This document shows, in pieces, positions 25,801-64,000 of a stretch of 64,000 nucleotides of DNA. Source of the DNA: Macrostomum lignano (lineage: Eukaryota). The stretch spans positions 54,943 to 118,942 of the forward strand of contig NIVC01003109.1 in the NCBI GenBank assembly GCA_002269645.1, written 5' to 3'. Every line of letters begins with the position of its first letter. Positions within the stretch are counted from its first letter, which is position 1. The notes beneath the pieces were generated by a model, which was not told the DNA's origin, did not search any database, and saw only the letters and a list, made by a program, of their open reading frames with translations. The translations under genes were made by a program, and so were the position numbers.

Positions 25801-28800
25801 CAATTGGTTCCATGGTTCAATTGGTTCAATGGTTCAATTGGTTCCATGGTTCAATTGTTTCCATGGTTCAATTGGTTCAATGGTTCAATTGGTTCCATGG
25901 TTCAATTGGTTCCACGGTTCAATTGGTTCCACAGTTCAATTGGTTCCATGATTCAATTGGTTCCATGGTTCAATTGGTCCATGGTTCAATTGGTTCCATG
26001 GTTCAATTGGTTCAATGGTTCAATTGGTTCCATGGTTCAATTGGTTCAATGGTTCAATTGGTTCCATGGTTCAATTGGTTCCATGGTTCAATTGGTTCCA
26101 TGGTTCAATTGGTTCAATGGTTCAATTGGTTCCATGGTTCAATTGGTTCAATGGTTCAATTGGTTCAATTGTTCAATTGCTTCAATTGTTCAATTGGTTC
26201 CATGGTTCAATTGGTTCCATGGTTCAATTGGTTCAATGGTTCAATTGGTTCCATGTTTTAATTGGTTCCATCCCATGGTTCAATTGGTTCCATATTTTAA
26301 TTGGTTCCATGGTTCAATTGGTTCCATGGTTCAATTGGTTCAATGGTTCAATTGGTTCCATGGTTCAGTTGGTTCCATGGTTCAATTGGTTCCATATTTT
26401 AATTGGTTCCATCCCATGGTTCAATTGGTTCCATATTTTAATTGGTTCCATCCCATGGTTCAATTGGTTCCATGGTTCAATTGGTTCCATGGTTCAATTG
26501 GTTCAATTGTTCAATTGCTTCAATTGTTCAATTGGTTCCATGGTTCAATTGGTTCCATGGTTCAATTGGTTCAATGGTTCAATTGGTTCCATGGTTCAAT
26601 TGGTTCCATGGTTCAATTGGTTCCATGGTTCAATTGGTTCCATGGTTCAATTGGTTCCATCGTTCAATTGGTTCAATGGTTCAATTGGTTCCATGGTTCA
26701 GTTGGTTCCATGGTTCAATTGGTTCCATATTTTAATTGGTTCCATCCCATGGTTCAATTGGTTCCATATTTTAATTGGTTCCATCCCATGGTTCAATTGG
26801 TTCCATATTTTAATTGGTTCCATCCCATGGTTCAATTTGTTCCATATTTTAATTGGTTCCATCCCATGGTTCAATTGGTTCCATATTTTAATTGGTTCCA
26901 TCCCATGGTTCAATTGGTTCCATATTTTAATTGGTTCCATCCCATGGTTCAATTGGTTCAATTTTGTTTCAAGGTTGCATGGTTTCGAAGCAAAAATTTA
27001 ACAAAATTACGAGTAACCACAACTATTGCAATAGAATCGCCTCCCACCCCCCAAATCTGCTAATTTTTGTACGAAAAACCTGGATGACAGTACAGCAATA
27101 AAAGCACATGCCACACCCCGTTAAATGACTCACGGGCCTTCCCGGTGCAAAGTCCTGTTTTTGTGTCGCAGGGCCGTTCGGCAGGACACTTGGAGCATTT
27201 CGGGCCCTGTTTGTATATTCCGTTTCTGTGGATGAGCAATATTAGTGACATAGAACTACACGTTATTACCTGATGTAGGCCCATTTGAATAGTTTATTAT
27301 GTCAGATTGCAGATTTAGCTAATTGCTAAAGTTTAGTCTGGAAACCATGCACGAGGCCTCGTGTGAAATTCCCGAGCGAGTAGCGTTTCAATCCCCATTA
27401 GAGAGATAGGGAAGCGACAAAAATGTTGTTTTTTTATCAAAATGCAAACCAACAATTGACAAGCACTCCGATCCTTATTCTTTATCCACATCATAACACT
27501 ATCACTTCACGTTGCAAATAAAAAACCGAAGGTAAAGGGTTTTAGTGATCGATTTCACAGTTTTCAAAAATCCAAAAAGCAAATCCATGAAGACGATCCG
27601 ATATCCAATTCGGTTTACAAAGCGAAGCGAAGCTATCGCGTTTGTAACGGTGTTTTGGTGTTCTACAAGCATTACCTGAAATCGATCATTATCTCGATAC
27701 ATGCTAGCTTCGGTTCACGATCCTTTACATATATTGCTTGCATTTAAATGATCGTAAACCAAAGTGGATATATAGGACACGAGACACTAGGTTTTCCATA
27801 TCGTTCAGTTTCTCTAGTGAACCAAATCTGCCCGGTTTTTCAATTTTCGATCGGGCCATTATCGCTGAAATGGAAATTTACGTGATCGTAAACCGAAGGA
27901 ATGCTAAGCTACACAAAAAAACAAAAATAAAGCAACAAGCTTTTAACAGCATTGACAATAAGCTGTAGAACCTCACAGACAACTGACAACTGAAGTGCTT
28001 ATGGTTGTCTCGGGGTGGCCTGGTAGGTCTTTGAATCCCACCGCTGCCACCAGTGAAGTACAAGCTATTTGCTTCCCGGATTAGGCCCTTGCGGATTACC
28101 TTAAACCTCGGCCTCTTCTTCTTGGGAAGTTCTCTCAACTCTCAGTAGCGTAGGTAGTGCTGTCACCAGTTCCTTCAGGTCTCGGCCCTCGATGAGGTGA
28201 GCTTCCCGTCGGAACGAAATAAACAAGTCAACGAACTCAGCACAGCGTGCAGATTTGCAGATTAATGAACAAGGCGTCCTGATCAGCAGATCCCCGCCGG
28301 GCTCAGGGGTGGCTGGGAAGGCAGTGTTAGCCTCCCTTAGGCTTGGGCTTTAGTGGGGTCTCAGTCAGACCAGTACAAACGGATTCAGTACGCAAAGGGC
28401 ACTTAGTTAGACACTGACGCACACGGGATCTTAGTGAATTCTCCGCAGATAAGAAGCCTCCTTGACGGAAACAAGGGGAGAGGGGTCCTATTTATAACCG
28501 GGAAACACCCACGCACAAGACCTCGTGACTTGTTCTATTTTTAGAACTGACGTCACTTGAGATCTCGAGGCAGGGTCTCAGTGCGCGCAAGACCTCGTGA
28601 CTCGTTCTATTTTTAGAACTGACGTCACTTGAGGTCTCCGGCCAGAGTACACGCGGCTGTGACTCAGTTGCTATTTTTAGCAACATGAGTCACTCCTCTC
28701 CTTAGAGAAGGGAGGGGTCCGAAAGCACGTGATTCTCCCGGTAAATAGGGCCAACGAGTGCAGCAAACATGTTTACTGCACTTTAGGACTCGAAGAACGC

Positions 28801-39314: not shown

Positions 39315-40364
39315 TAGTATAAATAAAATATTTTAATTAATATACATTATTAAAAAAGAATTTAACAAAACAAAGTTGCTTATGATTTGAAAAAAAACAT
39401 TTCTTTTTTTAAGAATTATATATATAGCAATGTAGTTTATTAAACTTGGGTTTTTCTTTCTTATAACTTTTTTATAATGCAATTGTAATATTTGAATAAT
39501 TTTTATAATAGTTATATTCCTTTTATACATTGCAAAACATAAAGTATAATATTTTTTTTCAAGTATAATAGTATGGTTCTTTATTTATATAGACATTTTA
39601 ACTGCTTAATAAATACAAGGGTTGTTTAGAAAGTCCACAATCAAATATGCAATCTTTTTTAAGTCACTAGGCCTATTTTGTCTTGGTATTTTATACCATA
39701 GACAAAAATCATACCTTGAATGTTTTAAAGTAAGAATGGTCTTGTTTGAACCAAGCATTTCCTTTGTGTAGTTTTTTAGATATACACAAATTTTTCTACT
39801 ATGCTTAATAATGAAGAAGAAAAGCAAAGCATTATTTGGATTTGTAGAGGCAAGGAAAGCAATAAGCAAAAATTCTTTGTGAGATGCAAGCAACATTTGG
39901 TGAATATATAGCCTAACATCAAAAAACATGGTCAACAAGTGGGTGCAGCACTTTGAAGATAGCTAAGAGATAGTCAATGACTTTCTATGGCATACATGTG
40001 CAACAGTTAGCTGAGCTAGCTGATCCGGCCAACCAATTTTTTAGCCAACCAAGGTAAGTCACAAAAATGCCCACTTGAATAAAACCCAAGTAGTACTAAG
40101 TACTAAGTAGATAATGAGGCATTTTGCCTTAGTAAGACAGTTATAGTTACATACATGCGCAACTGCTGGCCGACCTGGCCGATCCGGCCACCGTAAATTG
40201 TGGCTGACCAGGGGTAAGTCGCAAAATTGAGTCAACCAAAAACAGAAAAACACAAGAACCAAGAAAGGCAAGAGGAAAGCGAAAGAAAGAGCAGTTCAGG
40301 GAAAATGGTGAAGCAAAAGAAAAACAATTCGCAAAAGAAGCAAACTAAGTTGTAAAAATAATCA

Positions 40365-41095
40365 GATAAGTCGCAAAAAGGATCAGGTAAGTCGCAACAG
40401 GAATCAGGTAAGTCGCAAAAGGGTTAGGTAAGTCGCAAAAAGGATTAGGTAAGTCCCAAAAAGGATTAGGTAAGTCGCAAAAGGATCAGCTAAGTCGCAA
40501 AAGGGTTAGGTAAGTCGCAAAAGGGTTAGATAAGTCGCAAAAGGGTTAGGTAAGTCGCAAAAGGATCAGCTAAGTCGCAAAAGGATTAGGTAAGTCGCAA
40601 AAAGGATTAGGTAAGTCGCAAAAAGGATTAAGTAAGTCGCAAAAAGGATTAGGTAAGTCACAAAGGGTTAGGTAAGTCGCAAAAGGATTAAGTAAGTCGC
40701 AAAAAGGATTAGGTAAGTCACAAAGGGTTAGGTAAGTCGCAAAAGGATTAGGTAAGTCGCAAAAAGGATTAAGTAAGTCGCAAAAAGGATTAGGTAAGTC
40801 GCAAAAGGGTTAGGTAAGTCGCAAAAGGATCAGGTAAGTCGCAAAAAGGATTAAGTAAGTCGCAAAAAGGATTAGGTAAGTCGCAAAAAGGATTAGGTAA
40901 GTCACAAAGGGTTAGGTAAGTCGCAAAAGGATTAGGTAAGTCGCATAAGGATTAGGTAAGTCGCAAAAAGGATTAGGTAAGTCGCAAAAGGAATAGGTAA
41001 GTCGCAAAAAGGATTAAGTAAGTCGCAAAAAGGATTAAGTAAGTCGCAAAAAGGATTAGGTAAGTCGCAAAAAGAAGCAACTAAGTCGCAATAAG
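40365..41095. repeat. 20-22-bp subterminal array (TAGGTAAGTCGCAAAAAGGAT)n of the middle-tier element
   Basis: Direct inspection. Confidence 0.95.
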
Positions 41096-42095
41096 AGGGA
41101 AGTAAGTCACAATCAGAGGCAATCAGGGGGTAGTAGGTGCAAGTGTGGCAGGAGAGCAAAAACAGAATAGAAGCCTTCAACCACAGACAAGATCTTTGAA
41201 ATCAGAAGCCCGCGTCATTTCTTAAACTCTGGAGCAGGGGTTGGCAAACTCCGGCTCGCGAAGCCCCTCTATCTGGCCCTCGCCCCTCGGGTTCTTTGAA
41301 ACTTCCTAACTACGAGTAGCAAGGTTGGTGTCTCTTCAACTCTCATCTCTCTCTTCTTCTCTACCTTGCCTCCCCTCTTCTCTCTCTCCCCCTTTTCCCT
41401 CTTCTCTCTCCTCTCATTTTTACTCTCCTCTCTTCTCCCCCTTTCTCTCTACCCTTTCTCCTCAATGCCCTCTTCTCTCCTCTTATCTTCAGCAAAAATA
41501 TGTGCATATTTTCTTACTTCAAAGTAGAGGGAATAGAAGATTAGAGATAAGCAAACAGAGGAGAGGCGAGCGATGCGATGGGAGAAAAGATAGAAGAGGA
41601 GAGAAAAGCTGAGGGAGGAAAAAGAGATGAGAGAGAAGAGGAGATGAGAGAAAAGAGGAAAGAAAAGATGATGGATGAGATCAGAAGAGAGGAAAGAGGA
41701 AAGAGGAGAGAGTAGATGAGAGACGAGAGGATAAAGAGGAGATGAGAGGAGAGTGAAGAGAGGAGAGACGAGAGAGTAGAAAAGAGAGGAGAGATAATGA
41801 GAGAGTAGAGTGGAGAGAGACGAGAGGGAAGATAAGATGAGAGAGTAGAGTGGAATGGAGAGAGACGAGAGGAGAGATAAGAATGTAGAGAGGAGACAGA
41901 AGAGATAGGAGAGGAGAGGAAAGAGAGGAGAGAGGAGAGGAAAGAGAGAAGGGATAAGGGATGAGAGAGAAAAGAAAAAGAGGATGAGAAGATTGAGGAA
42001 TGGAGAGAATTTGCAAAGGCCTCAAATCTTAGTTCAACATGCATTACTCCCATCTTTGCCTTTTTCCTAACTGTTAACAAGTTTTTGTTTGAGCA

Positions 42096-45016
42096 CATAC
42101 ATGCGCAACTTCTGAAATTACGCTGGCCGTGCGACTTAGTTTTCGATAAAAAATGCGACTTACCTATGAAAGAGCCAAGCAAAAACTTTAGGTAAACGGC
42201 AGGAGTAACTATGACCATATTTTTAAAGCTAAATGCCTCGCCAGCTAATTAGTGCTGCGTGCAGATTCCGCGTTTTTATAACAGCTAATCAGTATGTCGT
42301 CTAGTGGCGGCATGAAGCAATTAGTAAATTGTCAGTACAGTGTAGTGAGCATACTACAAAAGTCATGATTCATGAATGTCCAGAAGTAAGTGAAGTGAAT
42401 ACAGTGTGACCTATAGCTCAAGAACGATTTGCTAGACGATTTGGCATGGAAGATGAGAGCCCTGATTCAGATGGCTCATCAGATGCAGAATACGAATCCA
42501 GTAGAGATACAAGCTGTGAAAACCCACAGATTTTTAAACCACTGAATTCTAATTCCCGGAACTATTTTTGCATAGATTCTAAATTTGAAGTCATGCTCAA
42601 ACAAAAACTTGTTAACAGTTAGGAAAAAGGCAAAGATGGGAGTAATGCATGTTAAACTAAGATTTGAGGCCTTTGCAAATTCTCTCCATTCCTCAATCTT
42701 CTCATCCTCTTTTTCTTTTCTCTCTCATCCCTTATCCCTTCTCTCTTTCCTCTCCTCTCTCCTCTCTTTCCTCTCCTCTCCTATCTCTTCTGTCTCCTCT
42801 CTACATTCTTATCTCTCCTCTTGTCTCTCTCCATTCCACTCTACTCTCTCATCTTATCTTCCCTCTCGTCTCTCTCCACTCTACTCTCTCATCTTATCTC
42901 TCCTCTCTTTTCTACTCTCTCATCTCTCCTCTCTTCACTCTCCTCTCATCTCCTCTTTATCCTCTCTTCTCTCATCTACTCTCTCCTCTTTCCTCTTTCC
43001 TCTCTTCTGATCTTATCCATCATCTTTTCTTTCCTCTTTTCTCTCATCTCCTCTTCTCTCTCATCTCTTTTTCCTCCCTCAGCTTTTCTCTCCTCTTCTA
43101 TCTTTTCTCCCATCGCATCGCTCGCCTCTCCTCTGTTTGCTTATCTCTAATCTTCTATTCCCTCTACTTTGAAGTAAGAAAATATGCACATATTTTTGCT
43201 GAAGATAAGAGGAGAGAAGAGGGCATTGAGGAGAAAGGGTAGAGAGAAAGGGGGAGAAGAGAGGAGAGTAAAAATGAGAGGAGAGAGAAGAGGGAAAAGG
43301 GGGAGAGAGAGAAGAGGGGAGGCAAGGTAGAGAAGAAGAGAGAGATGAGAGTTGAAGAGACACCAACCTTGCTACTCGTAGTTAGGAAGTTTCAAAGAAC
43401 CCGAGGGGCGAGGGCCAGATAGAGGGGCTTCGCGAGCCGGAGTTTGCCAACCCCTGCTCCAGAGTTTAAGAAATGACGCGGGCTTCTGATTTCAAAGATC
43501 TTGTCTGTGGTTGAAGGCTTCTATTCTGTTTTTGCTCTCCTGCCACACTTGCACCTACTACCCCCTGATTGCCTCTGATTGTGACTTACTTCCCTCTTAT
43601 TGCGACTTAGTTGCTTCTTTTTGCGACTTACCTAATCCTTTTTGCGACTTACTTAATCCTTTTTGCGACTTACCTAATCCTTTTGCGACTTACCTAACCC
43701 TTTTGCGACTTACCTAATCCTTTTTGCGACTTACTTAATCCTTTTTGCGACTTACTTAATCCTTTTGCGACTTACCTAACCCTTTGCGACTTACCTAACC
43801 CTTTGTGACTTACCTAATCCTTTTTGCGACTTACCTAATCCTTTTTGCGACTTACTTAATCCTTTTTGCGACTTACCTAATCCTTTTGCGACTTACCTAA
43901 CCCTTTTGCGACTTACCTAACCCTTTGCGACTTACCTAACCCTTTGTGACTTACCTAATCCTTTTTGCGACTTACCTAATCCTTTTTGCGACTTACTTAA
44001 TCCTTTTTGCGACTTACCTAATCCTTTTGCGACTTACCTAACCCTTTTGCGACTTACCTAATTCTTTTTGCGACTTACTTAATCCTTTTTGCGACTTACC
44101 TAATCCTTTTTGCGACTTACCTAATCCTTTTTGCGACTTACCTAATCCTTTTTGCGACTTACCTAATCCTTTTTGCGACTTACCTAACCCTTTGTGACTT
44201 AGCTAATCCTTTTTGCGACTTACCTAACCCTTTGTGACTTACCTAATCCTTTTTGCGACTTACCTAATCCTTTTTGCGACTTACTTAATCCTTTTGCGAC
44301 TTACCTAACCCTTTGTGACTTACCTAATCCTTTTTGCGACTTACCTAATCCTTTTTGCGACTTACCTAATCCTTTTTGCGACTTACTTAATCCTTTTGCG
44401 ACTTACCTAACCCTTTGTGACTTACCTAATCCTTTTTGCGACTTACCTAATCCTTTTTGCGACTTACCTAATCCTTTTGCGACTTAGCTGATCCTTTTTG
44501 TGACTTACCTAATCCTTTTTGCGACTTACCTAATCCTTTTTGGGACTTACCTAATCCTTTTTGCGACTTACCTAACCCTTTTGCGACTTACCTGATTCCT
44601 GTTGCGACTTACCTAATCCTTTTTGCGACTTACTTAATCCTTTTTGCGACTTACCTAATCCTTTTTGCGACTTACCTAATCCTTTTTGCGACTTACCTAA
44701 TCCTTTTTGGGACTTACCTAATCCTTTTTGCGACTTACCTAACCCTTTTGCGACTTACCTGATTCCTGTTGCGACTTACCTGATCCTTTTTGCGACTTAC
44801 CTGAATATTTTTATAACTTAGTTTGCTTCTTTTGCGAATTGTTTTTCTTTTGCTTCATTATTTTCCCTGAACTGCTCTTTCTTTCGCTTTCCTCTTGCCT
44901 TTCTTGGTTCTTGTGTTTTTCTGTTTTTGGTTGACTCAATTTTGCGACTTACCCCTGGTCAGCCACGATTTACGGTGGCCGGATCGGCCAGGTCGGCCAG
45001 CAGTTGCGCATGTATG
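42096..45016. mobile_element. Inner tier of the same family, in inverted orientation (2921 bp)
   Basis: TIRs at both ends; 8-bp TSD TTTGAGCA at 42088-42095 and 45017-45024. The same site occurs once, unduplicated, inside this copy (TGCTCAAA, about 42593-42600). Confidence 0.93.
43612..44812. repeat. Inverted, expanded version of the same array in the inner element
   Basis: (GCGACTTACCTAATCCTTTTT)n, about 480 bp longer than in the middle tier. Confidence 0.95.
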
Positions 45017-47604
45017 TTTGAGCATGACTTCAAATTTAGAATCTACGCAAAAATAGTTCCGGGAATTAGAATTCAGTGGTTTAAAAATCTGTGGGTTTTC
45101 ACAGCTTGTATCTCTACTGGATTCGTATTCTGCATCTGATGAGCCATCTGAATCAGGGCTCTCATCTTCCATGCCAAATCGTCTAGCAAATCGTTCTTGA
45201 GCTATAGGTCACACTGTATTCACTTCACTTACTTCTGGACATTCATGAATCATGACTTTTGTAGTATGCTCACTACACTGTACTGACAATTTACTAATTG
45301 CTTCATGCCGCCACTAGATGACACTGATTAGCTGTTATAAAAACGCGGAATCTGCACGCAGGACTAATTAGCTGGCGAGGCATTTAGCTTTAAAAAATAT
45401 GGTCATAGTTACTCCTGCCGTTTATCTAAAGTTTTTGCTTGGCTCTTTCATAGGTAAGTCGCATTTTTTATCGAAAACTAAGTCGCACGGCCAGCGTAAT
45501 TTCAGAAGTTGCGCATGTATGTATAGTTACCTCTTACCATTTACCCAGACTTGCATTAATTTTGCCTTAGGGTTTCTTTTATATGTAAATCACACTTTTG
45601 GCCAAAAACTGTTGCATTTTTTTGTTAAAACTAAGTCACATGGCCAACTGAATTCTGGAGGTTGCGCATGCATGTTCTATGGAGTGACTAGCTTGCCACC
45701 ATTGTCAATAGGTCAAACATTGAGCTTGTGTGTCATGCTCTAGATATTGATTGCCAAGCTACAATGCAAGAGCTATCAACCATTATTGGCATCTCATCAA
45801 TGATCATTCACTCAATCCTGATGTAGGGTTTAGAGGGCATTATTATATAAAACATAAAGTTCTTCAATACACTCAAACTTGTCCTCTTCCAAAGAATAGA
45901 AAATCAATCATTGTGATGTTTATGACCTCAGAACTATTTTTGGCCGCACTCTGCAAACCACCAGACTAGTTGAAACCATGATCCATTGAAGGTATTTTTA
46001 CTTTGTTAGATGAACCTATAGAGAAAAGAGGAAATTAAAAATAGACTTGCAGTTTTATTAGCTTTGTTATCTAGATATTGATAAATATCTGATAAATATT
46101 GATAAATAATTAAAAAGTTAAACAAATTGTGAAACTTACCTGTTGGGCTTTCTTTGAGTTTGCAGTTGACCATAGCACAGATAAGACTTGTAGTCTGGAA
46201 TAAAATTAGGCAAAAATGTTAAATAAGATATGATTTATTTATTAATTATAAACATTATTTCAAACCTCTTCTAAGTCAAATAATAGCGAAATATTAATTT
46301 AAAGCAATATGAAATGCTTATTTCAATATTTTAAAGAGTCACTAAGAGTCCTTGTGGTTTTCAGGTCTTTATAGTTGAAAGCCTTCATGCATTTTAAAAA
46401 GAATAGATCTTTATAAGCTAAAATTCTTTAAAATACATTTTAAATTGTTGGAGTACCTTATAAGTCAGTTTATTCACTTGCAAAAACTAATTAATTCACT
46501 CACTGATGTTCTTTGTCCACTTACTGACGTCACTTGTCCACTGATCGATGCCATCAGTAAGTGGACATTTTGTGCTATTTTAATAATATGGCACCTCTTA
46601 CAAACACTATTTCAATCAATTTCCTACAGTAAAACATGGTAAAACACACTCAATTTAGATAGGAATAGTGGGAAGAAACATAAAATACTAGCAGAACTGC
46701 TACACAATAATAAATAGCCATTGGTAAGTGGAAACCTTGTGCTATTAGAGTATTGCTCAAAAAATGTTTTGCAATGTTCAGAAACAAATATCTTCATTAG
46801 TGTCTAAGAAATTGCAGGACAATATGAATGCACAAGAAATTTTAAAATATAATAATACAGATACAGCCGACTTACCAAAATTAAATTCTAGGCATCGATC
46901 AGTAGACACAATAGGTGTTGATAAGTGGAAATCAAAAATGGAAGGCATACTTTGCTTTAAAAAATCAAAATGGCTAGCACTTTTTAAATAATATTAAGTA
47001 GTAAAACAAAACAACTATATGATAAAAAGAAAAAATGACACCAAAATAGAGTGTCCCTATTTACTACAAATAAAATTATTGTTATTTAATAGGAAGATGC
47101 TTCAAAAATGACATTCATTTTGTTGAATTTTCCGAACTTTTACACAATAAAAACTTTGCATTTCAACTTACCAATCTTTTAAATTATGTTTTAAATAGAA
47201 ATTAGTTGTCTAATCTATTTTTTATTGTTATGGTGCTGCAAAAATTCTCTGTTTGGTAAAAATTTTAGAAAGACACGAAAAAAATTTTCTATATTCATTT
47301 TTGGATTCACCTATAGGTGATTTTGATTTTTAGGATTTTATGATTATATAAGAGTGGGATTGAAATTTTTATATAATATATTGCCATATATAGAGGTTGG
47401 ATATAATCAAAATTTTAGGGATTGGGTAGGTGGGATTAGGATCCCAATTTTTGCTTAGAAACTAGGAGTTCAGGATTAAAATTAGAAACCCATATTTTTC
47501 CTTTATTTGCTAAGAAAACTCAAATTAAATGACAGTTAAAAGATGCTATCAGAGAGTTGTTATACTATGTCCTGCAGAAAGTTGGTTGAAGATGCAGTGG
47601 CTTA

Positions 47605-48038: not shown

Positions 48039-51000
48039 ATGATTATTCAGTGGTCTCCTAATCTTGCAACATGGGTTAGAACAAGAATCAAGACCTGTCT
48101 ATTTGTTGTCAACTCACTACTGCTAGTAGGTGGAGCTCTGTTGCTGGGTGTTTGCTGGCGCGTGTTCACCCAGTTTGATGCAATGCGGTACTCATCCCTG
48201 GGTCTAGTGAATATCAACTCTATTGTGCTCATCCGAGTTGGTTTTGTCTTCTGTGCATTTCTGGCTATTTTTATAGCTGCACTCGGATGCGTTGTAGCTT
48301 GTAAAGAAAGTTGTGGATTTGTTCAGCTGGTAAGAATTTGTTTTACTTCTCAATTGTCACTTTATTGCTCTGAAAATTGTCACTTAAGTGTCGTGAGAAT
48401 TGCTATTTAATTGCCATAAGAATCGTCACTTTATCGCTCTGAGAATCGTCATTTTATCGCTCTGAGAATCGTCACTTTATCGCTCTGAGAATCGTCACTT
48501 TACCGCTCTGAGAATCGTCATTTTATTGCCCTCTGAGAATCGTCACTTTATCGCTCTGAGAATTGTCACTTAATCGCCCTGAGAATCGTCACTTTACCGC
48601 TCTGAGAATCGTCATTTTATTGCCCTCTGAGAATCGTCACTTTATCGCTCTGAGAATTGTCACTTAATCGCCCTGAGAATCGTCACTTTACCGCTCTGAG
48701 AATCGTCATTTTATTGCCCTCTGAGAATCGTCACTTTATCGCTCTGAGAATCGTCACTTTATCGCCCTGAGAATCGTCACTTTATCGCTCTGAGAAGAAT
48801 CGTCACTTTATCGCCGTGAGAATCGTCACTTTATCGCCCTGAGAAGAATCGTCACTTTATCGCCCTGAGAATCGTCACTTTATTGCCCTGAGAATCGTCA
48901 CTTTATCGCTCTGAGAATCGTCACTTTATCGCTCTGAGAAGAATCGTCACTTTATCGCTCTGAGAATCGTCACTTTATCGCTCTGAGAAGAATCGTCACT
49001 TTATCGCCCTGAGAATCGTCACTTTATTGCCCTGAGAAGAATCGTCACTTTATCGCTCTGAGAATCGTCACTTTATCGCTCTGAGAAGAATCGTCACTTT
49101 ATCGCCCTGAGAATCGTCACTTTATTGCCCTGAGAATCGTCACTTTATCGCCCTAAGAATCATCACTTTATCGCTCTGAGAAGAATCGTCACTTTATCGC
49201 CCTAAGAATCATCACTTTATCGCTCTGAGAAGAATCGTCACTTTATCGCCCTAAGAATCGTCACTTTATCGCTCTGAGAATCGTCACTTTATCGCCCTGA
49301 GAATCGTCACTTTATCGCTCTGAGAATCGTCACTTTATCGCTTTGAGAATCGTCACTTTATCGCTTTGAGAATCGTCACTTTATCGCCCTAAGAATCGTC
49401 ACTTTATTTCTCTGAGAATCGTCACTTTATCTCTCTGAGAATCGTCACTTTCTCTCTGAGAATCGTCACTTTATTGCTCTGGTAATCGTCATTCAATACC
49501 TAAATGTAATGGCCTTTAAACTGGTCCATAAATGTTCACCTGATTCACCTTAGTAGTATTTCCTTAGTTAGGTACCCCAGCTTACATGACGATCGCAATT
49601 ATAAAACAAGGCGTATTTATTGTGCCTAACTGCTAATTTTAGTTAAGCATACGCCATAAAGTGTTTAAGTGGTTTATTAGTTTGAAATCTATCGCAACTA
49701 ATTTTGTTTACACTCGACTTAATTTAATTTTTATTTATAACTAACACTGCCTGACAGCACCTGGCTCTGCTGGCTCTGCTATTGATGGCTCACCTGTCGG
49801 CTGTGTCATTAGCGGCAGCCAGTGCCAGTCGGTATCGAACCATTGACGACTCTAAACTGTCTCTCAAAAGCATCAGAGATCAGTATGGATTGTTTAGTAG
49901 AAATTCTACTGCGGATGGTGACGTCACTGCGGCTGTTGATACTTTTCAAGCTGAGGTAAGCTGTTTTTATCAACGTTGCTGTCACGTTTTTTGCAGCGCA
50001 CTTTTAAGTTTGTTGCGTGAACTTGAATTTGATGAATTTTGATGAATTGTGACGTAAATTCATTAAGTTGTACCGGTTGCGTACATGCATGCACTGGAAT
50101 GTAAATTGCCTTTTGTTCTAAATGATACAGATTTAAATCAGAAGATAGTAGACAGTGCAGTTCTCACCGAACTTCGCTCCCCTCCCATCTTCTCCCTCTC
50201 CTCTCTTTCCCTGTGACCTTTCCTTCCTATCATCGTCTCCCCCTCATCTCTTATCTCCCTCTCCCCATCTCCCTCTCCCCATCTCCCTCTCCCCATCTCC
50301 CTCTCCCCATCTCCCTCTCCCCATCTCCCTCTCCCCATCTCCCTCTCCCCATCTCCCTCTCCCCATCTCCCTCTCCCCATCTCCCTCTCCCCATCTCCCT
50401 CTCCCCCATTTTCTCCCATCTCCCTCTCTCCCATTTTCTCCCATCTCCCTCTCCCCCATTTTCTCCCATCTCCCTCTCCCCATCTCCCCATTTCTCTCCC
50501 CCCATCTCCCTCTCACCACTTGTCTCCCTCTCCCCCATCTCCCTCTCCCTATCTCCCTCTCTCCTATATCCATCTAACCTCTTGTGTCCCTCTTCCCTTT
50601 CTCCCTCTCACCTCTTCTCTTCCATCTCCCTCATCTCTTCTCTCCCATCTCCCTCATCTCTTTTCTCCCTTCTCCCTCATCTCTTCTCTCCCATCTCCCT
50701 CATCTCTTCTCTCCCATCTCCCTCATCTCTTCTCTCCCATCTCCCTCATCTCTTCTCTCCCATCTCCCTCATCTCTTCTCTCTCATCTCCCTCATCTCTT
50801 CTCTCCCTTCTCCCTCATCTCTTCTCTCCCATCTCCCTCATCTCTTCTCTCCCATCTCCCTCATCTCTTCTCTCCCATCTCCCTCATCTCTTCTCTCCCA
50901 TCTCCCTCATCTCTTCTCTCCCATCTCCCTCATCTCTTCTCTCCCATCTCCCTCATCTCTTCTCTCCCATCTCCCTCATCTCTTCTCTCCCATCTCCCTC

Positions 51001-52148: not shown

Positions 52149-52269
52149 CCTGCATCTTGTTCTAAAAATATTTAATTCTTTTAGCTTTTTTGTGATAATT
52201 TACTTATCAGTAGTGTGTTTATTGTTTTTTTTTTAGTCGAATTTTTCATACTTTTTTACATGAATTTGG

Positions 52270-54469
52270 TGTAACCGCCCTTGTCGCCTGTCCGCTCCGT
52301 AGAGAGACGAACGCATGGCTAGAGGGGGCAATGACCGTAGGCTGCCTAGGACCGGGCAATGACCTGACGGACCTCCAGCACCAGACTGTCCCGCCCACAT
52401 GATTAGTAGCTTTGGTAGCGCTTCGTGACCAGAGGGCCAAGGACCCACATGGACCCCACCTGTAGCCAAGGTGCAATAGTTGGTCACTCGGTCATGGTAT
52501 GACCGAGTGGCTGCCACCACTCTATGTGACCTGGCGCACCTGGATCTTTCTACCAGACCTCTCGAGGCTAGAGCCCCGCCTGGATTGGTTACCAGGGGAT
52601 TTAGGCTAACAGGGGAGACGCATGCAGCCGAGTACAGGGACTCTGCTTGGGGCATGATCGGGAACTCTGGGCTCAATCCTGGAGGATTTCTCAGCAGGGG
52701 ATCCTTTGTGGCTGTGAGCGAGGCTGACTTGCGACTTTGATTACTAAGAGTAGTATGAGGCGAACATGTACTATCTACAGTTTAGATTGCTCAGGGCGAA
52801 GGGACGCGTCAGCATGGGGTTGCAACCTTCCTACTGCCATTCTGTGCCAAGACTCGCTAATCCCTCTACTGCACGCACACGCGGCCCCGCAGCACGCACT
52901 CACAGGCGGGCTGTGCACGGGGAGAGGCCATTAGCTTACCCAAACTTCCTTATGCTTTGCCACCCCGGGGAAAGGCTTAGCAAGCCATGAGTGAAATGAT
53001 GGTGAAAGATTGAATAATGATGAAGTTAGTTAATAGTTAATAATTAGGCCCTTAGGCAAATAAGCAGGCAATTAGGCGGCTTCACTATTGAGTAAGATAC
53101 AGCAAAAGATACGGTATCACAATTGGCTCAGCTCTCTAATCAGACAATGGAAAATAGGCAAACCCCGGATAAGCAAAGGCAATTAGAGCACAAATTAGTA
53201 GCAGGAACTTACCGGCAGCTGCACAGAGAGAGAGAGAGGCGGAGTGACCGAGGGCGGCTGTAGGCTGCAGTCAGGCAGACGGTGAAGCGGCGATGCGCTG
53301 GAGCGACGAGGCGCTGATGTAGATCAGGCGATGCTGATGATGCTGGGCGGTATCAGACCGCTGGCCGATAGGCGAGCTCACTTGGGGAGCTAAGGATAAC
53401 TTGGCGGTAACAGACCGCGGACCGGCAGGGATTCGTCTTATAGACGAATGGGTCAGAACTCAATCTGACAGCAAGTCCAAAGAAGGACGAGGAGAGGAAC
53501 AGAGATAAACTCAGTTGAGTATTCTCATGCCGAAATCGCTTCCTTTTATAGACCTCACAGCCGCCTCCTCAAGGTCGTTACCATGGCTCCCTCTCTCTGA
53601 TTGGCTGCCGGCAGAATGACGTCAGAATGAGTCATGATGAGAAGCATGAGACCGGCATAGCAACATGAGAAATCGGGAAATTGCGCAATCCGGAGGTGGG
53701 GTGGGGGGATAATTGGCGCAGCGGGTGGTCGCGAAAGTGTTGCGCAAGCAAACATTGAGAACAATAGGGCTGGGGTCGAGAACAAAGGAATTGGAAATCG
53801 GGGATAATTGGGGAAAACTGAGAACAATGGAAAAGTAAACATTGGAGAAAAGGTGATAATTAGGTGCGAAAACGAGAACAAAAGAAAGAGAAAATCGGAG
53901 AAAATGTGATAATTGGTGGGGGTCGAGAGAACAAAAGAAGCAAAACCGAGAACAATAGAAGCGGAGGTGGGGTGGGTGTCACATGAGAAATTTGGGAAGG
54001 AGAACAATAGCGTGAGAAAAGGTTGCGCAAGAGAGGGGGATGAGTCATCGAGGGGGAGAAGGGGTCACACGACTTGCGTCACCGTTTGGGAGTTTGAGAG
54101 GGGATGGGGAGACGGTGAGCACACAAAGTACTGTAAGTAGACACAGGGAAAGAGGGGACAGCGCAGGAAAAGAGTGCAGAGGGAGACAAAAAAAGGGAGG
54201 AGGTAGAGAAAGTACAGGAAGAATAGGGCGGGAACAGAAGAGATAGGGTAGAGGGGGAGGTACAGAAAGGGGTAGGGGCTCCGGAAAGGCAGGTGTGGCG
54301 GCAGGAGAGACGGGACCAAGGCAGCAGGAGGGGTGCAGCAGAGCGGGAGTCTCCAGGCCCGGTCGGAGACCTGGCCGAGTCTCGACAGCTCTGTGCAGAG
54401 GGTGCACGGGATAGGAGGCACTTTCGAAAAAGTTCCCATGCCCTATCCCGCGACCAGAGCGTGGTTACA
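52270..54469 (-). repeat. 3' LTR, 2200 bp
   Basis: Termini TGTAACC...GGTTACA. On the minus strand, CCAAT at about 53598-53602 and TATAAAA at about 53544-53550. Confidence 0.92.
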
Positions 54470-55076
54470 TCACACCCCCACTGCCTTTTGTGACGGAACT
54501 GGTTCCGTCATCATCACTGCCCAACATGGAACCACACAGACGGGAGCGGGATCTCAACCGAACGTGAAATCACAGAATTAACAAACCGCGAGCGGGAATG
54601 GAAAAAGGCGATAAAATAGAGGGGATAGCAATAAATTCACAAAACGAGATACATAGGTTGGAGTGCAATACAGAATTTCAAAAATTTCAACTGTTGCTGT
54701 GGCTAAAGTGGGAGGGGGGAAACACAGACAGCGCAATAGTAGGGAGAAAAATAGCGAATTGTCAACAATAAATTATCATAATTGGATAGAAGCGCAGCTG
54801 GGAAAGAGAGGAAACGGGGAGGGTGAGGGAAGTGGGGAAAAAGAAGGGGGGAAGGGTTGCTAGCACACAGCCAAGGGCAGAGCCTCGGGGAGAATGACAA
54901 TTACACAGGGGAAAAATACTAATGCAGCGCAGTAAATTAATAAGCTAATTTCGCCGGGAGTTCAACCGCACGGAGGCCTAGCGTCCTTGAAGGCTCGGAC
55001 CCCGCTTCAGCCAGTCAGAGGGCTTCGGGGCGATCGGTTGTAGGCTGGGAGGCGCCGCGCCGTGCGCTGGCCACTG

Positions 55077-55190
55077 TATAAAAGGCGCCACTGATAACGG
55101 GAGCCGGCTGCCTGCAACCTACACGGAGTCGCAGTTTCCAACCAAGGCACTCAGCGCGATTTTCCAAACTATACAACTACTCGGTAAGTC
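55077..55190 (+). promoter_or_regulatory. Candidate antisense promoter and short first exon inside the LTR element
   Basis: TATAAAA at 55077-55083 after a GC-rich stretch; donor CG/GTAAGT at 55184. Confidence 0.45.
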
Positions 55191-55531
55191 CCATCACCAA
55201 CCTGATTTCCTTTCGCCTATACGTTAAACGAAATCTACCCACTCGCCATGCCTTTCGTTTTAAACTGAGCCAATTGCAGTAATAATATATGGCCTTTCTT
55301 ACGGTAAAAGTAGTGAGCAGCCAACACAGAGCCATTTTTAGGAATTTTTAGGATAATGACACAACAATGACTCGTATATTGGTTATTAAAGTTTAAAAAT
55401 GAATATTATGGAAGAACCGAATATTAATAGGATAATTTCACACACACACACACGACAAACACACAACGCAAGGGGGCGGAAAGGCGGGTCGGACCGGCCG
55501 GCGGACGTCGCTCAGCAGGCAGTCGGCATCC

Positions 55532-56881
55532 TTACTCGAAATGGGCCTCTTGATTTAGCTGGTACGGGCCATATGCCGCCACCTGAGCCATGGCACTTGC
55601 CCATGCTTCCACATAACGTTGGGCTGCCGCGGCCGTGAGCACCACTCGGTGCCATCGGCTAGGCAAGATGTCGTTGCGCAGCACGCCCCTCAACTGCGGC
55701 AGAGTCGGGATGCCCAGGGCTTGGCATTGGACGACGAAGGCCGCATTCCGTACTTGTTGCAGCCGTGTCAGAGTTGGTGCAGACAGGGGCGGCTGCGCGA
55801 TTGCAAAATGCTGCAAAGTGCCACGGGGCACCTCGGCCAGGCCCGCGTAGCCGGGCTCAACGTCGCCCAGGGCCGCCAACACCCACCCACAGCGGCGATT
55901 GAACCGTTGCGAGAGAGTGGCGGCCCAGGCCACTGTGGCAAACGGCGCATAGAGGAGGGGCGCAGAGGCCGGCGCGGAGGCCGCAAGAATGCCGTCGTGG
56001 ATGACGAGAGCCTCTTCCCATTCGGCGCCCTCGCTCAGGAAGCCCCAGAGCAGCCCTGGCAGGTCCGCAGGAAGCATGCCCCAGCGGCTGGCCAAGCTGG
56101 CCAGGCCAATCAATAGCCGGGCTCTCTGGGTTGGTGTCAGTTGTCTAGTCATCTGAGAGGAGGCTGCGCAGCTGATGATCACCTTCTTGTAGACCGGCCG
56201 ATCGCAGGTGCTGAAGATTGCTGTGATGGGGGCACAGGACGGCGGCCGGGCTGTCAGGTGCGATGGTTCCTCATCCACAACCTTGCGGAGGAACTTGGCG
56301 GCCTGCCGGACTAGGTCGCCGAGGGCGTATTTGTAGGCGCTCTGGGCCGCTGCCTCGATGTACATTAACAGCGTATTGTCAACCAATCCCAGCAGGGCCG
56401 CTTTTGACAGGATGAGCAGACAGGGCCGGTCCAGGTTGTCGCGAAGTTGGCGCTCTAGAGTCGCATGCCTGTCCTCGGCCTGGAGTGGGCCATGATAGGA
56501 CTCAAGCCCGACCCAGTGCACCAGATCCCTAGCTGTCGCCGAAGGTTCGCCAGCCACCTGACCCCAATCGACTTCTTCTCTTTGCAGGGCGATGTCCACA
56601 CTTCGGCGGCTGTTGGGCAGAACATCACGCAGGCGGCGGGCCGCCTCGCCGAATTCGGCCGCCATGTCCGAAATGTCCGCGGTGTCGCCCCCAGCATTGG
56701 CCGGGTCGATTGTCTCGTCACCTTCTTCGACCCTGGCGGAGGCCGCCGCTGGCGGCTCGGGGCCGTCCTCCGCCTCTTGGATGGCGTCACGGGGCCGCTT
56801 TCGGCTAACTGGGCTGGCAGGACGCTCAGACGGTAAGCTGGAGCATAGCTGAATTCGATTGATGGTAGGCTTCGTGTCCAT
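55532..56881 (-). CDS. 449-aa orphan protein carried by the LTR element
   Basis: Long uninterrupted GC-rich ORF; N-terminal RKRPR (NLS-like) and acidic disordered region; no signal peptide or clear TM; no family recognised. Confidence 0.8.
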   Translation of the reverse strand: MDTKPTINRIQLCSSLPSERPASPVSRKRPRDAIQEAEDGPEPPAAASARVEEGDETIDPANAGGDTADISDMAAEFGEAARRLRDVLPNSRRSVDIALQREEVDWGQVAGEPSATARDLVHWVGLESYHGPLQAEDRHATLERQLRDNLDRPCLLILSKAALLGLVDNTLLMYIEAAAQSAYKYALGDLVRQAAKFLRKVVDEEPSHLTARPPSCAPITAIFSTCDRPVYKKVIISCAASSQMTRQLTPTQRARLLIGLASLASRWGMLPADLPGLLWGFLSEGAEWEEALVIHDGILAASAPASAPLLYAPFATVAWAATLSQRFNRRCGWVLAALGDVEPGYAGLAEVPRGTLQHFAIAQPPLSAPTLTRLQQVRNAAFVVQCQALGIPTLPQLRGVLRNDILPSRWHRVVLTAAAAQRYVEAWASAMAQVAAYGPYQLNQEAHFE

Positions 56882-56969
56882 GTCAAGCTGGATAGTTCAT
56901 AGAATGCTTCAGCGATTGAAGGACAGAATGATTTCTCTGATTGATGATTTCCAGCTCTGGCAGGCGTGG

Positions 56970-57095
56970 GTCTTCTTATAGTGCCGGGGCTGGCTTCCCA
57001 TTGGTTGAGCACATTGGGAGGCACACCTGCTGCGGCCGGGGTCGCCGTTGGCTTGGGACCGCTCGCTCTAGTCTCCGTGCGCTCTGATTGGCTGG
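56970..57095 (-). promoter_or_regulatory. Candidate internal promoter for the 449-aa ORF
   Basis: On the minus strand, AGCCAATCAG (about 57084-57093), AACCAATGG (about 56999-57007) and CTATAAGAA (about 56973-56981), roughly 95 bp upstream of the ATG. Confidence 0.55.
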
Positions 57096-57811: not shown

Positions 57812-58218
57812 GATTCCGGCCGCTAGTAGCCGAGCCCATCCTTGAAGAGGAGTCCGACTACGAAGCGCCCGAAGACAGCCATTCAGAGCCGGACGCCCCC
57901 TCTGATTCTGGGCCGGCTGCGCCATCTGGTGACATAGGCGCCGCGGCTCCCGGGCCATGCGACCGCCGGGCCGCCAGCGAACCAGCGTCCGGGGCCGGTT
58001 GGCATCCGGTACCACCGCCGTTGTCAGCCCGAGCGCACGCTCCGCCGCCGGTCGCCGCGGTGACGCCCGTGGCTGCCGCTCCACAGCCCTTGCCAACCCC
58101 TGTGGTGGAGACCGACGGCTCCTGGCATTTGGTCGTGCTGTCGACGGCCCTAATAGCCGGTCTCACAATGCACTGGCTACTGCTCTTGGAGCTATTTCTG
58201 CGGCTTCCCAACTGCTGA
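57812..58218 (+). CDS. Candidate antisense exon encoding an acidic/Pro-rich peptide with a C-terminal hydrophobic segment (134 codons, no in-frame ATG upstream)
   Basis: Acceptor CTCATTTTCAG at 57811; open frame FRPLVAEPILEEESDYEAPEDSHSEPD...WHLVVLSTALIAGLTMHWLLLLELFLRLPNC*. Confidence 0.45.
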
Positions 58219-58807
58219 TGCTGGTGGTTCTTAATGCTTACTTACTAATTCTGAACTATCTGTCCCCATAACTTGACTTTAATTACTTACCTGACTTTAC
58301 ATTGACTAAACCACTGGCCTACTCTAAACTAATTGCTGCCCCATTTGCCTGATAAACTTAATTACATTGAATGCCCCCCCCCCTATTGCCTCATCGAAAC
58401 CAATTAAAAGTTTCCCAAAATCGGACTTTCACAAAGTGTGAACAAACACACGAAATCAGACCTAAAGGTGCTAATTTCCTACGGTCCCAGACTTCCATTG
58501 TTCCCAGAAAATCTTGAACAGCGGGGCAGGACCTCCTGTGGAGCAGACCCATAGAAATTTTACTAGTTTCCAAGTTAATATTTACTGATAGGGAATTAAC
58601 GCATACTGTACGGGCCTAATTTTCGAGCTAAAATCTTAGATATTTAAACAACACCAACGAGCACGAGGTCACAACATAAATTCGAGTAATAGAGGGCATA
58701 CGTAAATACGCGAAAAGCGGTCTCCAACGGGGCAACACGAGCAAAATTTCGACACGCGAATCGGGGGGGGGGATTAAGCAATCACTGGCTAGCTACCGAT
58801 CTGTTAC

Positions 58808-59332
58808 TCAGCGGGGGTCGAATGGGAGACTCACACCTAGCAAGTAAACCTTTTCTGTTCGATAGTCTATGATAGCATGCGTACTGGCTAGAAAAGCACT
58901 ACCCAGGAGGGAAACTGCTGCTGAATTGCCAACGACCAGAAAGAGGATTCTCACCTCTTCTAGCCCAATAACTGCTGTGAGGGTGGCCTGGCCTAGCATC
59001 TCTAATTCATTGCCCGTGTAGGACACGGCCTTCACACATGGGGGCTCCAGGGCCTCCACACTCTGTCCGGTAATTTTAGTAAAGTCTTTGACTGTTAGCA
59101 AAGACAGCGCACTGCCCCCATCTACCAGGAGGCGGGTGGGAACATTCTCAATTGGCAACTCTACAACAATATCTCTCCCGCGTTGTCCTCCAGCTGGTCT
59201 TGGCTGATAGAAATCGGGTACCTTCTCAAATCTAAACTTCTTGCTGGGCGGACGTGGCAGGTTAAGCTGGGCCCTAGAGAGGGAACGGGGCTGAGTTCGG
59301 GCCGGGCCATTCAGCCCTCCCACGGGTTTCCC
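58808..59332 (-). CDS. Retropepsin-type aspartic protease in the -1 frame, ending in TGA
   Basis: RLLVDGGSALSLL active-site motif (DGG variant) and SLLGSAFL. It overlaps the gag end at a slippery heptamer. Confidence 0.85.
   Translation of the reverse strand, partial: GKPVGGLNGPARTQPRSLSRAQLNLPRPPSKKFRFEKVPDFYQPRPAGGQRGRDIVVELPIENVPTRLLVDGGSALSLLTVKDFTKITGQSVEALEPPCVKAVSYTGNELEMLGQATLTAVIGLEEVRILFLVVGNSAAVSLLGSAFLASTHAIIDYRTEKVYLLGVSLPFDPR
59270..59332 (-). promoter_or_regulatory. -1 programmed ribosomal frameshift signal
   Basis: In-phase G GGA AAC (59332-59326), followed after a short spacer by the stem GGGCTGA/TCAGCCC with possible loop-to-downstream pairing. Confidence 0.8.
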
Positions 59333-60756
59333 GAACCCGGGGGCTCTTCAGGCGTGGAAGGAGGAGGCATCAGAGCTTGCGCGCGCAGCTGGGCGAGCCT
59401 CTCCTGCCTCTCCCTGGTAGCCTCGTCTAACATATCTCTGCCCCACTCCTCTAAATCTTGCCTATGGCGATCAGGTGGCGCACGAAGCTGCAATTGCTGC
59501 TGCTGCACACCCGGCGCCGGCGGCGTGGGCGCCTCCTGAATTGCAAGCGGCGGGGGCTGGGGTTGGCGCCAGTTCCTACTGCTATTAGAGCCGCCCTGCC
59601 CCTGCCTCCAGTTCCTGTTGGGAGTGGCGGGGCGAGGGGGCCTCATCTGCTGGGGCAGCTGGGCAACAGACTCTGCTGTCGCCTTCATAGTTTCATTGAG
59701 CTGCACCAGCTGGTTGCGCAGATCCTTTTGCGTTTGCTCTAGCGCGCCCAACCTCTCTTGCATCTCTGATAGGCCGTCACCGTCCTCCTCCGTCTCGTCA
59801 GCTTCCTGGTTCACCATCCTGACCCACTTGCGAGGGGGCCTGGGTGGCTGCTGAGGTTGCAGACGGACTTCGGTGCGGGACTCAGACCTGGGCGGGCCAC
59901 TACTGTCCCATTTCCCGGCTAAGTCTGCGGCTTCTAACAGGGCTTGCTGCTGTTCTAACACCTGCTCAATTGTCTGCCAGCGACGGCTCAACAGATCTTG
60001 TCTGACCTGGCGGGGGAGCTTAGCGTGTTCCAAGTAGGTGTACACGATTTCTTGTTCTCTCTGCTCACCCTGAATCTGAGGAAACATGGCCGTTATCTGA
60101 GATCTTATCATAGCAGCAAAAGCACTATGTGATTGGCCGGGTTTCTGGCTCAGATTCTTCAGCTTATTTCTCTTAGCCAGATCAGTGTTGGCCTCGCCCA
60201 ACTGCTCTCCTAATCTAGATACGAACTGCTCAAAGGGCAATTGCCCGTCCAATCCTAAGGCTAAGTTCTGAAATTCACCTGGGAGGTGCGAGATGAGCAC
60301 CTGCTTCCTAGCCTGATCTCCTACAGTTCTCTCCGCGTCCAGCTTGTAGATCATTCTCTCTACCCATTGCACAAAACAGTGTTCGCCGGGAGAGAACTTT
60401 TCTACGTAGATTTTCGGCCTCTGGGCGTCTTGGCCCATGTTTAGCTGGTTAAACGCATTGGCTATAGCGGCAACTAAGTCTCCTAGCTGCGGGACTGCCT
60501 GAGGAGGATTCTGGGCTGCGTCCGGGGGAGCAGCGGCGGCTGCTGCGCCACCCTGATTGGGAGCGGGAGCTGCTACTCCTTCATCTGGTTCCTCAACTAC
60601 TACTGCTTCTGGAGGCTGAGGGACCTGGTTACCAGCGGCTGCGGCCATTGCGGCTGCGGGGGCGGCAACTGCTGGGGTGTCAGCGGCCGAGGGTGGTTGA
60701 CCAGGGGCGTCTGCGCACACAGCTTCTACGACCCTATCTCCACGCGCCCGTGACAT
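59311..60756 (-). CDS. gag: Gag-like capsid protein (about 481 aa from the likely ATG at 60756), without a CCHC knuckle
   Basis: Ala/Pro-rich N-terminus; retrotransposon-gag helical region (KFSPGEHCFVQWVERM ... LSQKPGQSHSAFAAMI); coiled coil; Arg/Gln-rich tail. Confidence 0.85.
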   Translation of the reverse strand: MSRARGDRVVEAVCADAPGQPPSAADTPAVAAPAAAMAAAAGNQVPQPPEAVVVEEPDEGVAAPAPNQGGAAAAAAPPDAAQNPPQAVPQLGDLVAAIANAFNQLNMGQDAQRPKIYVEKFSPGEHCFVQWVERMIYKLDAERTVGDQARKQVLISHLPGEFQNLALGLDGQLPFEQFVSRLGEQLGEANTDLAKRNKLKNLSQKPGQSHSAFAAMIRSQITAMFPQIQGEQREQEIVYTYLEHAKLPRQVRQDLLSRRWQTIEQVLEQQQALLEAADLAGKWDSSGPPRSESRTEVRLQPQQPPRPPRKWVRMVNQEADETEEDGDGLSEMQERLGALEQTQKDLRNQLVQLNETMKATAESVAQLPQQMRPPRPATPNRNWRQGQGGSNSSRNWRQPQPPPLAIQEAPTPPAPGVQQQQLQLRAPPDRHRQDLEEWGRDMLDEATRERQERLAQLRAQALMPPPSTPEEPPGSGNPWEG

Positions 60757-63103: not shown

Positions 63104-63121
63104 ATCCCACCGCTGCCACCA
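63104..63121 (-). promoter_or_regulatory. Primer-binding site for tRNA-Leu
   Basis: TGGTGGCAGCGGTGGGAT, 6 nt from the LTR end GGTTACA. Confidence 0.9.
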
Positions 63122-63127
63122 TTTTGA

Positions 63128-64000
63128 TGTAACCGCCCTTGTCGCCTGTCCGCTCCGTAGAGAGACGAACGCATGGCTAGAGGGGCAATGACCGTAGGCT
63201 GCCTATGACCGGGCAATGACCTGACGGACCTCCAGCACCAGACTGTCCCGCCCACATGATTAGTAGCTTTGGTAGCGCTTCGTGACCAGAGGGCCAAGGA
63301 CCCACATGGACCCCACCTGTAGCCAAGGTGCAATAGTTGGTCACTCGGTCATGTATGACCGAGTGGCTGCCACCACTCTATGTGACCTGGCGCACCTGGA
63401 TCTTTCTACCAGACCTCTCGAGGCTAGAGCCCCGCCTGGATTGGTTACCAGGGGATTTAGGCTAACAGGGGAGACGCATGCAGCCGAGTACAGGGACTCT
63501 GCTTGGGGCATGATCGGGAACTCTGGGCTCAATCCTGGAGGATTTCTCAGCAGGGGATCCTTTGTGGCTGTGAGCGAGGCTGACTTGCGACTTTGATTAC
63601 TAAGAGTAGTATGAGGCGAACATGTACTTCTACAGTTTAGATTGCTCAGGGCGAAGGGACGCGTTAGCATGGGGTTGCAACCTTCCTACTGCCATTCTGT
63701 GCCAAGACTCGCTAATCCCTCTACTGCACGCACACGCGGCCCCGCAGCACGCACTCACAGGCGGGCTTTGCACGGGGAGAGGCCATTAGCTTACCCAAAC
63801 TTCCTTATGCTTTGCCACCCCGGGGGAAAGGCTTAGCAAGCCATGAGTGAAATGATGGTGAAAGATTGAATAATGATGAAGTTAGTTAATAGTTAATAAT
63901 TAGGCCCTTAGGCAAATAAGCAGGCAATTAGGCGGCTTCACTATTGAGTAAAATACAGCAAAAGATACGGTATCACAATTGGCTCAGCTCTCTAATCAGA
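63128..64000 (-). repeat. 5' LTR (partial, cut by the window end)
   Basis: Matches 52270-53140 with about 8-9 differences. Confidence 0.95.

Follow-up and report, generated by a model that had tools for sequence, protein, structure and literature searches.

Many RNA viruses have segmented genomes, whereas for reverse-transcribing elements such genomes have only been hinted at, by cases from plants. In wheat Fatima, one subfamily carries reverse transcriptase (RT) and integrase and others carry gag and protease, and a division of labour has been suggested (10.1101/363192). Sabrina_SA/WHAM with Wilma (PMC9744471) and Quinta with Cereba (PMC11302176) are semi-autonomous partnerships, and gag-protease-only derivatives are described for ATHILA (10.64898/2026.03.20.713144). 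The grass pararetroviruses ePVCVL and ePVCVL2 are termed mutualistic and non-autonomous (PMC5491270). Here we analyze a 64,000-nt stretch of the Macrostomum lignano genome (the window; contig NIVC01003109.1, positions 54,943 to 118,942), in which a minus-strand Ty3/gypsy long terminal repeat (LTR) retrotransposon bears a 449-aa accessory open reading frame (ORF), and report that this element appears to be the Gag-protease half of a two-component system. A literature search of incomplete coverage, supplements excluded, found no account of the window element or of an animal two-component case.

The window element has the TG...CA LTR ends, primer-binding site (PBS) and polypurine tract (PPT) that are hallmarks of Ty3/gypsy. 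Its order, LTR-PBS-gag-protease-accessory genes-PPT-LTR, is that of 56 copies (component 1, or Gag-PR), and no RT, RNase H or integrase lies downstream of the protease. Thus, the accessory ORF follows gag-protease rather than occupying the env position after pol, as the preliminary description of this DNA had it. Ten copies of a second component match window positions 52265-55306 at ~98% identity, and nine of them also match 60547 onwards at ~98%, the tenth being cut by a contig end. These shared parts take in the LTRs, the leader and the 3' end, and the single frame that component 2 has between them encodes RT, RNase H and integrase along with a capsid-like domain. The RT-RNase H-integrase pol order (Pfam) was found in this partner only. 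A sister family (family B; gag core 44-46% and protease 39-41% identical to the window element) has an equivalent Pol component in 2 copies. We searched all six frames with a protease profile built from four ordinary gypsy proteases of the same genome. Whereas each of the 10 other gypsy loci scored 37-151 bits and the Gag-PR elements 22-30 bits, the profile stayed below 0 bits in all 12 Pol copies of families A and B, which likewise lack the Gag C-terminus (12/12). Capsid-to-RT spacing was 564-566 nt in the 11 copies with both matches. Each of the 65 matches to the gag start that both components share could be classified, 56 as Gag-PR type and 9 as Pol type, and none belonged to an element that combines gag and protease with RT, RNase H and integrase.

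Pol A and Pol B are mutual closest RT relatives (74% identity; next 50%). In trees, the four capsids formed one clade (100/100; one capsid row, C27, scored under the cut-off), Pol A and Pol B were sisters (98/97; RT 100/100) and the two proteases grouped at 89/85 on a long branch. These groupings of capsid, Pol and protease indicate that the split is older than the divergence of families A and B. Each Pol family is nonetheless ~98% identical in its LTR to its own Gag-PR element. No fixed difference in LTR U3 separated 9 Pol from 20 Gag-PR copies, and polymorphisms were common to both halves in the 3' region as far as the breakpoint. The family-B Pol component also keeps the last ~40 codons of the family-B accessory ORF (ORF-B) in its shared 3' region (L090:9417-9602, L092:7922-8107). 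Taken together, in this one assembly the gene sets complement each other, the cis ends are shared, the halves have co-diverged and no complete form was found. Since one half lacks protease and the other lacks RT, RNase H and integrase, each half likely needs the other, a dependence that is predicted.

The split resembles that of Fatima, where gag-protease and RT-integrase fall to different subfamilies. In contrast to that plant case, which rests on a single suggestive sentence, ours is animal and found in two families; a capsid domain has stayed fused to Pol, and the Gag-PR half carries accessory genes (10.1101/363192). Sabrina_SA/WHAM, Quinta and the ATHILA derivatives are likewise Gag(-protease)-only, with cis motifs common to an RT-bearing partner, long co-evolution and some extra ORFs. 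Their partners are described as autonomous, whereas here the partner lacks protease and dependence is predicted both ways (PMC9744471, PMC11302176, 10.64898/2026.03.20.713144). ePVCVL and ePVCVL2 are also two complementary defective genomes with non-coding regions homogenised through recombination, although these are circular Caulimoviridae with protease in both and neither LTRs nor integrase (PMC5491270).

We searched the genome with the accessory ORF and obtained 79 matches out of 87 candidates. These included 15 full-length intact copies at 99-100% identity (the window copy among them), a single intact copy at 77% (C100) and many further fragmented copies. Pairwise Nei-Gojobori ratios of nonsynonymous to synonymous change (dN/dS) against C100 were 0.107 overall (dS 1.3), 0.071 for residues 86-449 and 0.375 for residues 1-85. 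Against two open pieces of another diverged copy (C201) they were 0.105 and 0.091, and between family-B ORF copies 0.11, 0.13 and 0.23. The accessory ORF is a genuine gene under strong purifying selection, the lack of which would have told against the preliminary description. C100 is 95-98% identical to the window element in LTR, gag and protease and only 75-78% in the ORF, indicating that the accessory cassette has been exchanged between copies. Among 18 Gag-PR loci retrieved because this search had missed them, 15 have lost the ORF together with its promoter and antisense exon 2 (see below), with at least 4 different deletion junctions. Because many young copies have lost it, the accessory gene is dispensable in cis, and its protein likely works in trans.

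The intact ORF, the RKRPR motif (residues 27-31) and the acidic N-terminal tract (residues 1-85, isoelectric point 4.55, 17 D/E) are all present as first described. In simple hydropathy and motif scans (no dedicated signal-peptide predictor was run) the protein lacks the marks of an env, as described before: signal peptide, transmembrane anchor, furin site (RX[KR]R) and N-glycosylation sequon. Its highest 19-residue hydropathy is 1.71, in a stretch that includes K, D and N. No env, host-gene or pol match and nothing else usable emerged from Pfam, PDB sequences, a 5.8-billion-protein search or Atlas. The protein had been called an orphan, a status it loses to homologs of 23-34% identity. ORF-B (385-391 aa) sits at the same position and is 23-24% identical across the C-terminal ~260 residues. 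A profile of both ORF families found 2 matches among 1.84 billion proteins (E 1e-17, 1e-5), and a cluster mate of these, P0007 (437 aa, Logan assembly), is 34% identical across 341 residues with a similar layout. By sequence, then, the accessory ORF is neither an env nor a strict orphan.

The long helical region of the preliminary description holds for one domain, whereas the C-terminal ~150 residues are predicted, in a low-confidence model, to form an alpha/beta SGNH/GDSL esterase fold. No profile similarity to Pfam GDSL families was detected. We consider it probable that the C-terminal domain has this fold. If so, it almost certainly lacks esterase activity. With the block I register set by eye and by VIA range starts, the expected position of the catalytic Ser (GDS) reads HDG, NDG or HHG, and none of the 10 rows has a Ser within 3 residues of it. 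With the other blocks aligned by eye, the block III-like G is retained and the N substituted in 7 of 7 rows, and the block V region reads D-V-F-H in family B and only H-R in family A. A host GDSL protein used as comparator carries GDS, GAND and DGLH. Retroelement-borne SGNH domains outside gag-pol and without a transmembrane anchor are known from ORF1 of ZfL2-1 (PMC3905857) and from bdelloid rotifers, where Vesta LTR elements have a GDSL/SGNH ORF3 and Athena-L has dead GDSL derivatives (PMC5408684). In contrast to the rotifer LTR ORF3s, which keep S-G-N-H, the window protein lacks the serine, has a helical domain, a disordered N-terminus and its own promoter motifs, and shows no detectable sequence similarity to them (PMC5408684). 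The OSK domain of Oskar, termed non-catalytic (PMC3905857), similarly places a non-catalytic SGNH fold after a disordered region (structure 5a4a).

The accessory protein is very probably expressed from its own internal promoter. When the 250 nt upstream of the ORF were shuffled 5000 times with dinucleotides preserved, two CCAAT boxes followed by TATA arose 4 times. The offsets of the -210 CCAAT, the -123 CCAAT and the TATA are kept (+/-1) in C100 and C201, where ORF-region DNA identity is 73-78%; that of the -136 box is not. Family B has no sense CCAAT upstream, and a TATA at -110 in 1 of 3 copies scanned. The opposite strand carries a spliced gene, whose exon 2 lies opposite accessory ORF codons ~17-97, the nuclear localization signal (NLS)-like motif included. 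Splice evidence came from assembled contigs (28-nt sides; run type is an assumption). Both GT-AG joints are present in contigs of run X2 and the second also in X1, and they occur in none of five other runs, X6 showing a loose end where the first donor lies. C100 and C201 both retain the second donor; acceptor, ATG and phase are kept in C100, and the C201 acceptor was missed by the search pattern. Exon 3 has a dN/dS of 0.20 in the frame set by splicing vs 1.1 and 2.0 in the other two, and its product ends in a C-terminal hydrophobic helix (KD19 2.0). In family B, an antisense frame between protease and ORF-B is 203 aa long, contains RG repeats (L147:5277-5885) and lacks a hydrophobic tail; two variants of it (98% and ~60% identity) occur among 5 of 10 loci tested.

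We propose, with middling confidence, that the accessory ORF is a selected gene, carried by the Gag-protease half of a Ty3/gypsy element with two components, and encodes a dead SGNH-fold protein that would act in trans as an RNA or ribonucleoprotein scaffold for both halves. The RNAs of both halves would be made from the same promoter, component 1 would supply Gag and, via a -1 frameshift, Gag-protease, the component-2 polyprotein would be taken into the particle by means of its own capsid domain and cut by the component-1 protease, and co-packaging with template switching would keep the LTRs alike; we judge these steps, taken jointly, fairly likely. The higher copy number of Gag-PR may set the Gag:Pol ratio. 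The accessory protein would be a non-catalytic scaffold acting most likely on element RNA. RNA binding is a property of the Oskar OSK domain. CERV of C. elegans Cer1, a nuclear accessory protein of a Ty3/gypsy element, offers a model for such a role, although it is the product of a spliced sense mRNA (PMC10309623). Least sure, and only tentatively advanced, is that the protein enters the nucleus via its basic motif and binds element RNA for export or particle assembly, a public good for ORF-less copies. The motif is retained in 3 of 3 diverged family-A copies, and P0007 has a basic N-terminal motif as well. Two points weigh against nuclear entry: family B has neither basic motif nor acidic tract, and antisense exon 2 overlaps the motif codons, which weakens the NLS argument, since part of the motif's conservation may stem from the antisense gene.

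An unlikely but serious contender is that the same gene and fold serve membranes, the dead SGNH domain binding anionic lipids and targeting assembly there, perhaps with the antisense protein, as a matrix- or env-like substitute. The ZfL2-1 esterase binds anionic phospholipids and liposomes despite active-site mutations (PMC3905857), rotifer LTR elements have GDSL ORF3s at the same position (PMC5408684), and the hydrophobic antisense helix and the missing family-B motif fit as well. The near-neutral charge of the SGNH domain, the basic motif kept in family A and P0007 and the tailless family-B antisense frame do not. It is also unlikely that the partnership is not obligate, with the Pol component cut by another family's protease or working uncut and Gag-PR an ordinary semi-autonomous passenger like Sabrina_SA or the ATHILA derivatives. 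Such passengers are common (PMC9744471, 10.64898/2026.03.20.713144) and the genome has many protease-bearing gypsy families, but the partners of known passengers are complete, while all 12 partner copies here lack protease and Gag C-terminus, and the pairing holds in two families (74% RT identity), each with ~98% LTR identity to its own Gag-PR.

The preliminary description proposed a nuclear accessory factor that counters silencing or trans-activates; its targets would be host chromatin or small-RNA pathways. The accessory part of this view stands, for the gene is selected, has conserved internal promoter motifs, is not an env and is dispensable in cis; the anti-silencing role itself we regard as distinctly improbable. 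Consistent with it are the basic motif and acidic tract of family A, the promoter motifs, the trans action implied by ORF-less copies, the double-stranded RNA that sense and antisense transcription would yield, and acidic, disordered third ORFs in other gypsy families of this genome. Yet motif and tract are missing in family B and lie in the faster-evolving part (dN/dS 0.38), no DNA-binding domain was found, and the motif codons overlap the antisense exon. That the ORF is a by-product, either a mere antisense reading of the plus-strand gene or captured DNA evolving neutrally, has almost no chance of being true and is refuted by the dN/dS analysis: splice joints are seen only on the plus strand and many copies have lost the ORF, but dN/dS is 0.07 across 364 codons mostly outside the overlap, the frame is kept in homologs down to 23% identity and the promoter motifs are conserved.

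The wider view, neither this fold, the antisense gene nor the two-component nature having figured in the preliminary description, falls a little short of an even prospect: an ancient, stably segmented animal LTR retrotransposon, in which a single ancestor split into two segments, one with Gag and protease and one with capsid and Pol but no protease, neither of use without the other, held together by recombining LTRs across at least one family split. A new dead SGNH family and an overlapping spliced antisense membrane protein, both carried by the Gag-protease segment, would organise a two-part particle. A young, transcribed two-component animal element makes segmentation testable directly, as it does cheating by copies without the accessory gene and the control of Gag:Pol stoichiometry where no gag-pol frameshift exists. 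Both halves would be missed or misfiled by RT-based and intactness-based annotation. Retroelements have captured the SGNH fold repeatedly, and the accessory protein represents a further family of this kind, new and apparently non-catalytic.

Complete component-1 copies have LTR pairs 99.4-99.7% identical and are therefore young. The 3' LTR contains CRE-CCAAT-TATA motifs near 53550-53625, the hairpin downstream of G GGA AAC has a folding energy of -21.6 kcal/mol (no shuffle control), and the PBS is putatively complementary to tRNA-Leu. Other elements of ~2-6 kb are nested in two copies (L044/L045, C1570; L047, C616), and a separate repeat family (L069) carries ~80%-identical, internally deleted remnants of the protease region 58436-59242 in dozens of places.

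Table 1. Features of the window element, of its accessory protein and of third ORFs in other gypsy loci (window positions unless a locus or residues are given).
Feature	Position	Strand	Remarks
5' LTR	63128..64000	minus	cut by contig end; 99.0% identical to 3' LTR across 881 nt
PBS	63106..63121	minus	surrounding 31 nt 93.5% identical in family B
gag	59311..60756	minus	481 aa; first ~70 codons common to Pol component
Slippery heptamer G GGA AAC	59332-59326	minus	predicted -1 frameshift (region 59266..59332)
Aspartic protease frame	58808..59347	minus	LVDGGS; -1 relative to gag; ends in stop
Internal promoter motifs	56975..57091	minus	CCAAT + CCAAT + TATAAG upstream of accessory ORF
CCAAT at -210	57087-57091	minus	
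CCAAT at -136	57013-57017	minus	not conserved in C100, C201
CCAAT at -123	57000-57004	minus	
TATAAG at -99	56975-56980	minus	
Accessory ORF	55532..56881	minus	449 aa/449 codons; ATG start
Accessory protein N-terminus	residues 1-85		disordered, acidic; holds RKRPR
Accessory protein helical domain	residues ~150-288		
Accessory protein predicted SGNH-fold domain	residues ~289-440		without catalytic Ser
Antisense TATA and non-coding exon 1	55077..55183	plus	TATA at 55077; donor 55184; common to Pol component
Antisense exon 2	56588..56832	plus	ATG 56592; 80 codons + 1 nt
Antisense exon 3	57812..58218	plus	acidic, Pro/Ala-rich; stop at 58218
PPT	54470..54489	minus	
3' LTR	52270..54469	minus	2.2 kb; TGTAAC...GTTACA
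DnaJ third ORFs	L130:7594-8559, L132:7224-8099, L134:1903-2901, L135:1709-2704, L138:2346-3326		
G-W-P third ORFs	L104:2410-3423, L107:6415-7338, L136:1704-2624, L137:8026-9048		

Other gypsy families of this genome also carry third ORFs. At five loci a DnaJ domain opens the third ORF after pol (Pfam E 1e-12 to 6e-18), that of L134 also having a chromodomain (E 1.5e-12), and the third ORF at L100:2344-3834 (and L102/L103) matches TatD DNase weakly (E 4e-5, below cut-off). Members of a further group have an N-terminus that is acidic and disordered and a short C-terminal domain with a G-W-P motif at its end; these have no Pfam match and are not homologous to the 449-aa ORF. The C330 gypsy locus holds an extra 331-aa frame upstream of gag (L134:8664-9656). 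Elsewhere in the window are a long tandem array of 17-nt period (22900-27000), a tetraspanin-like host exon (48039-48410; Pfam E 6e-4, below cut-off), which points to an animal genome, and large, foldback-like nested inverted repeats (40149-45522), with arms of up to 814 nt that are 98% complementary.
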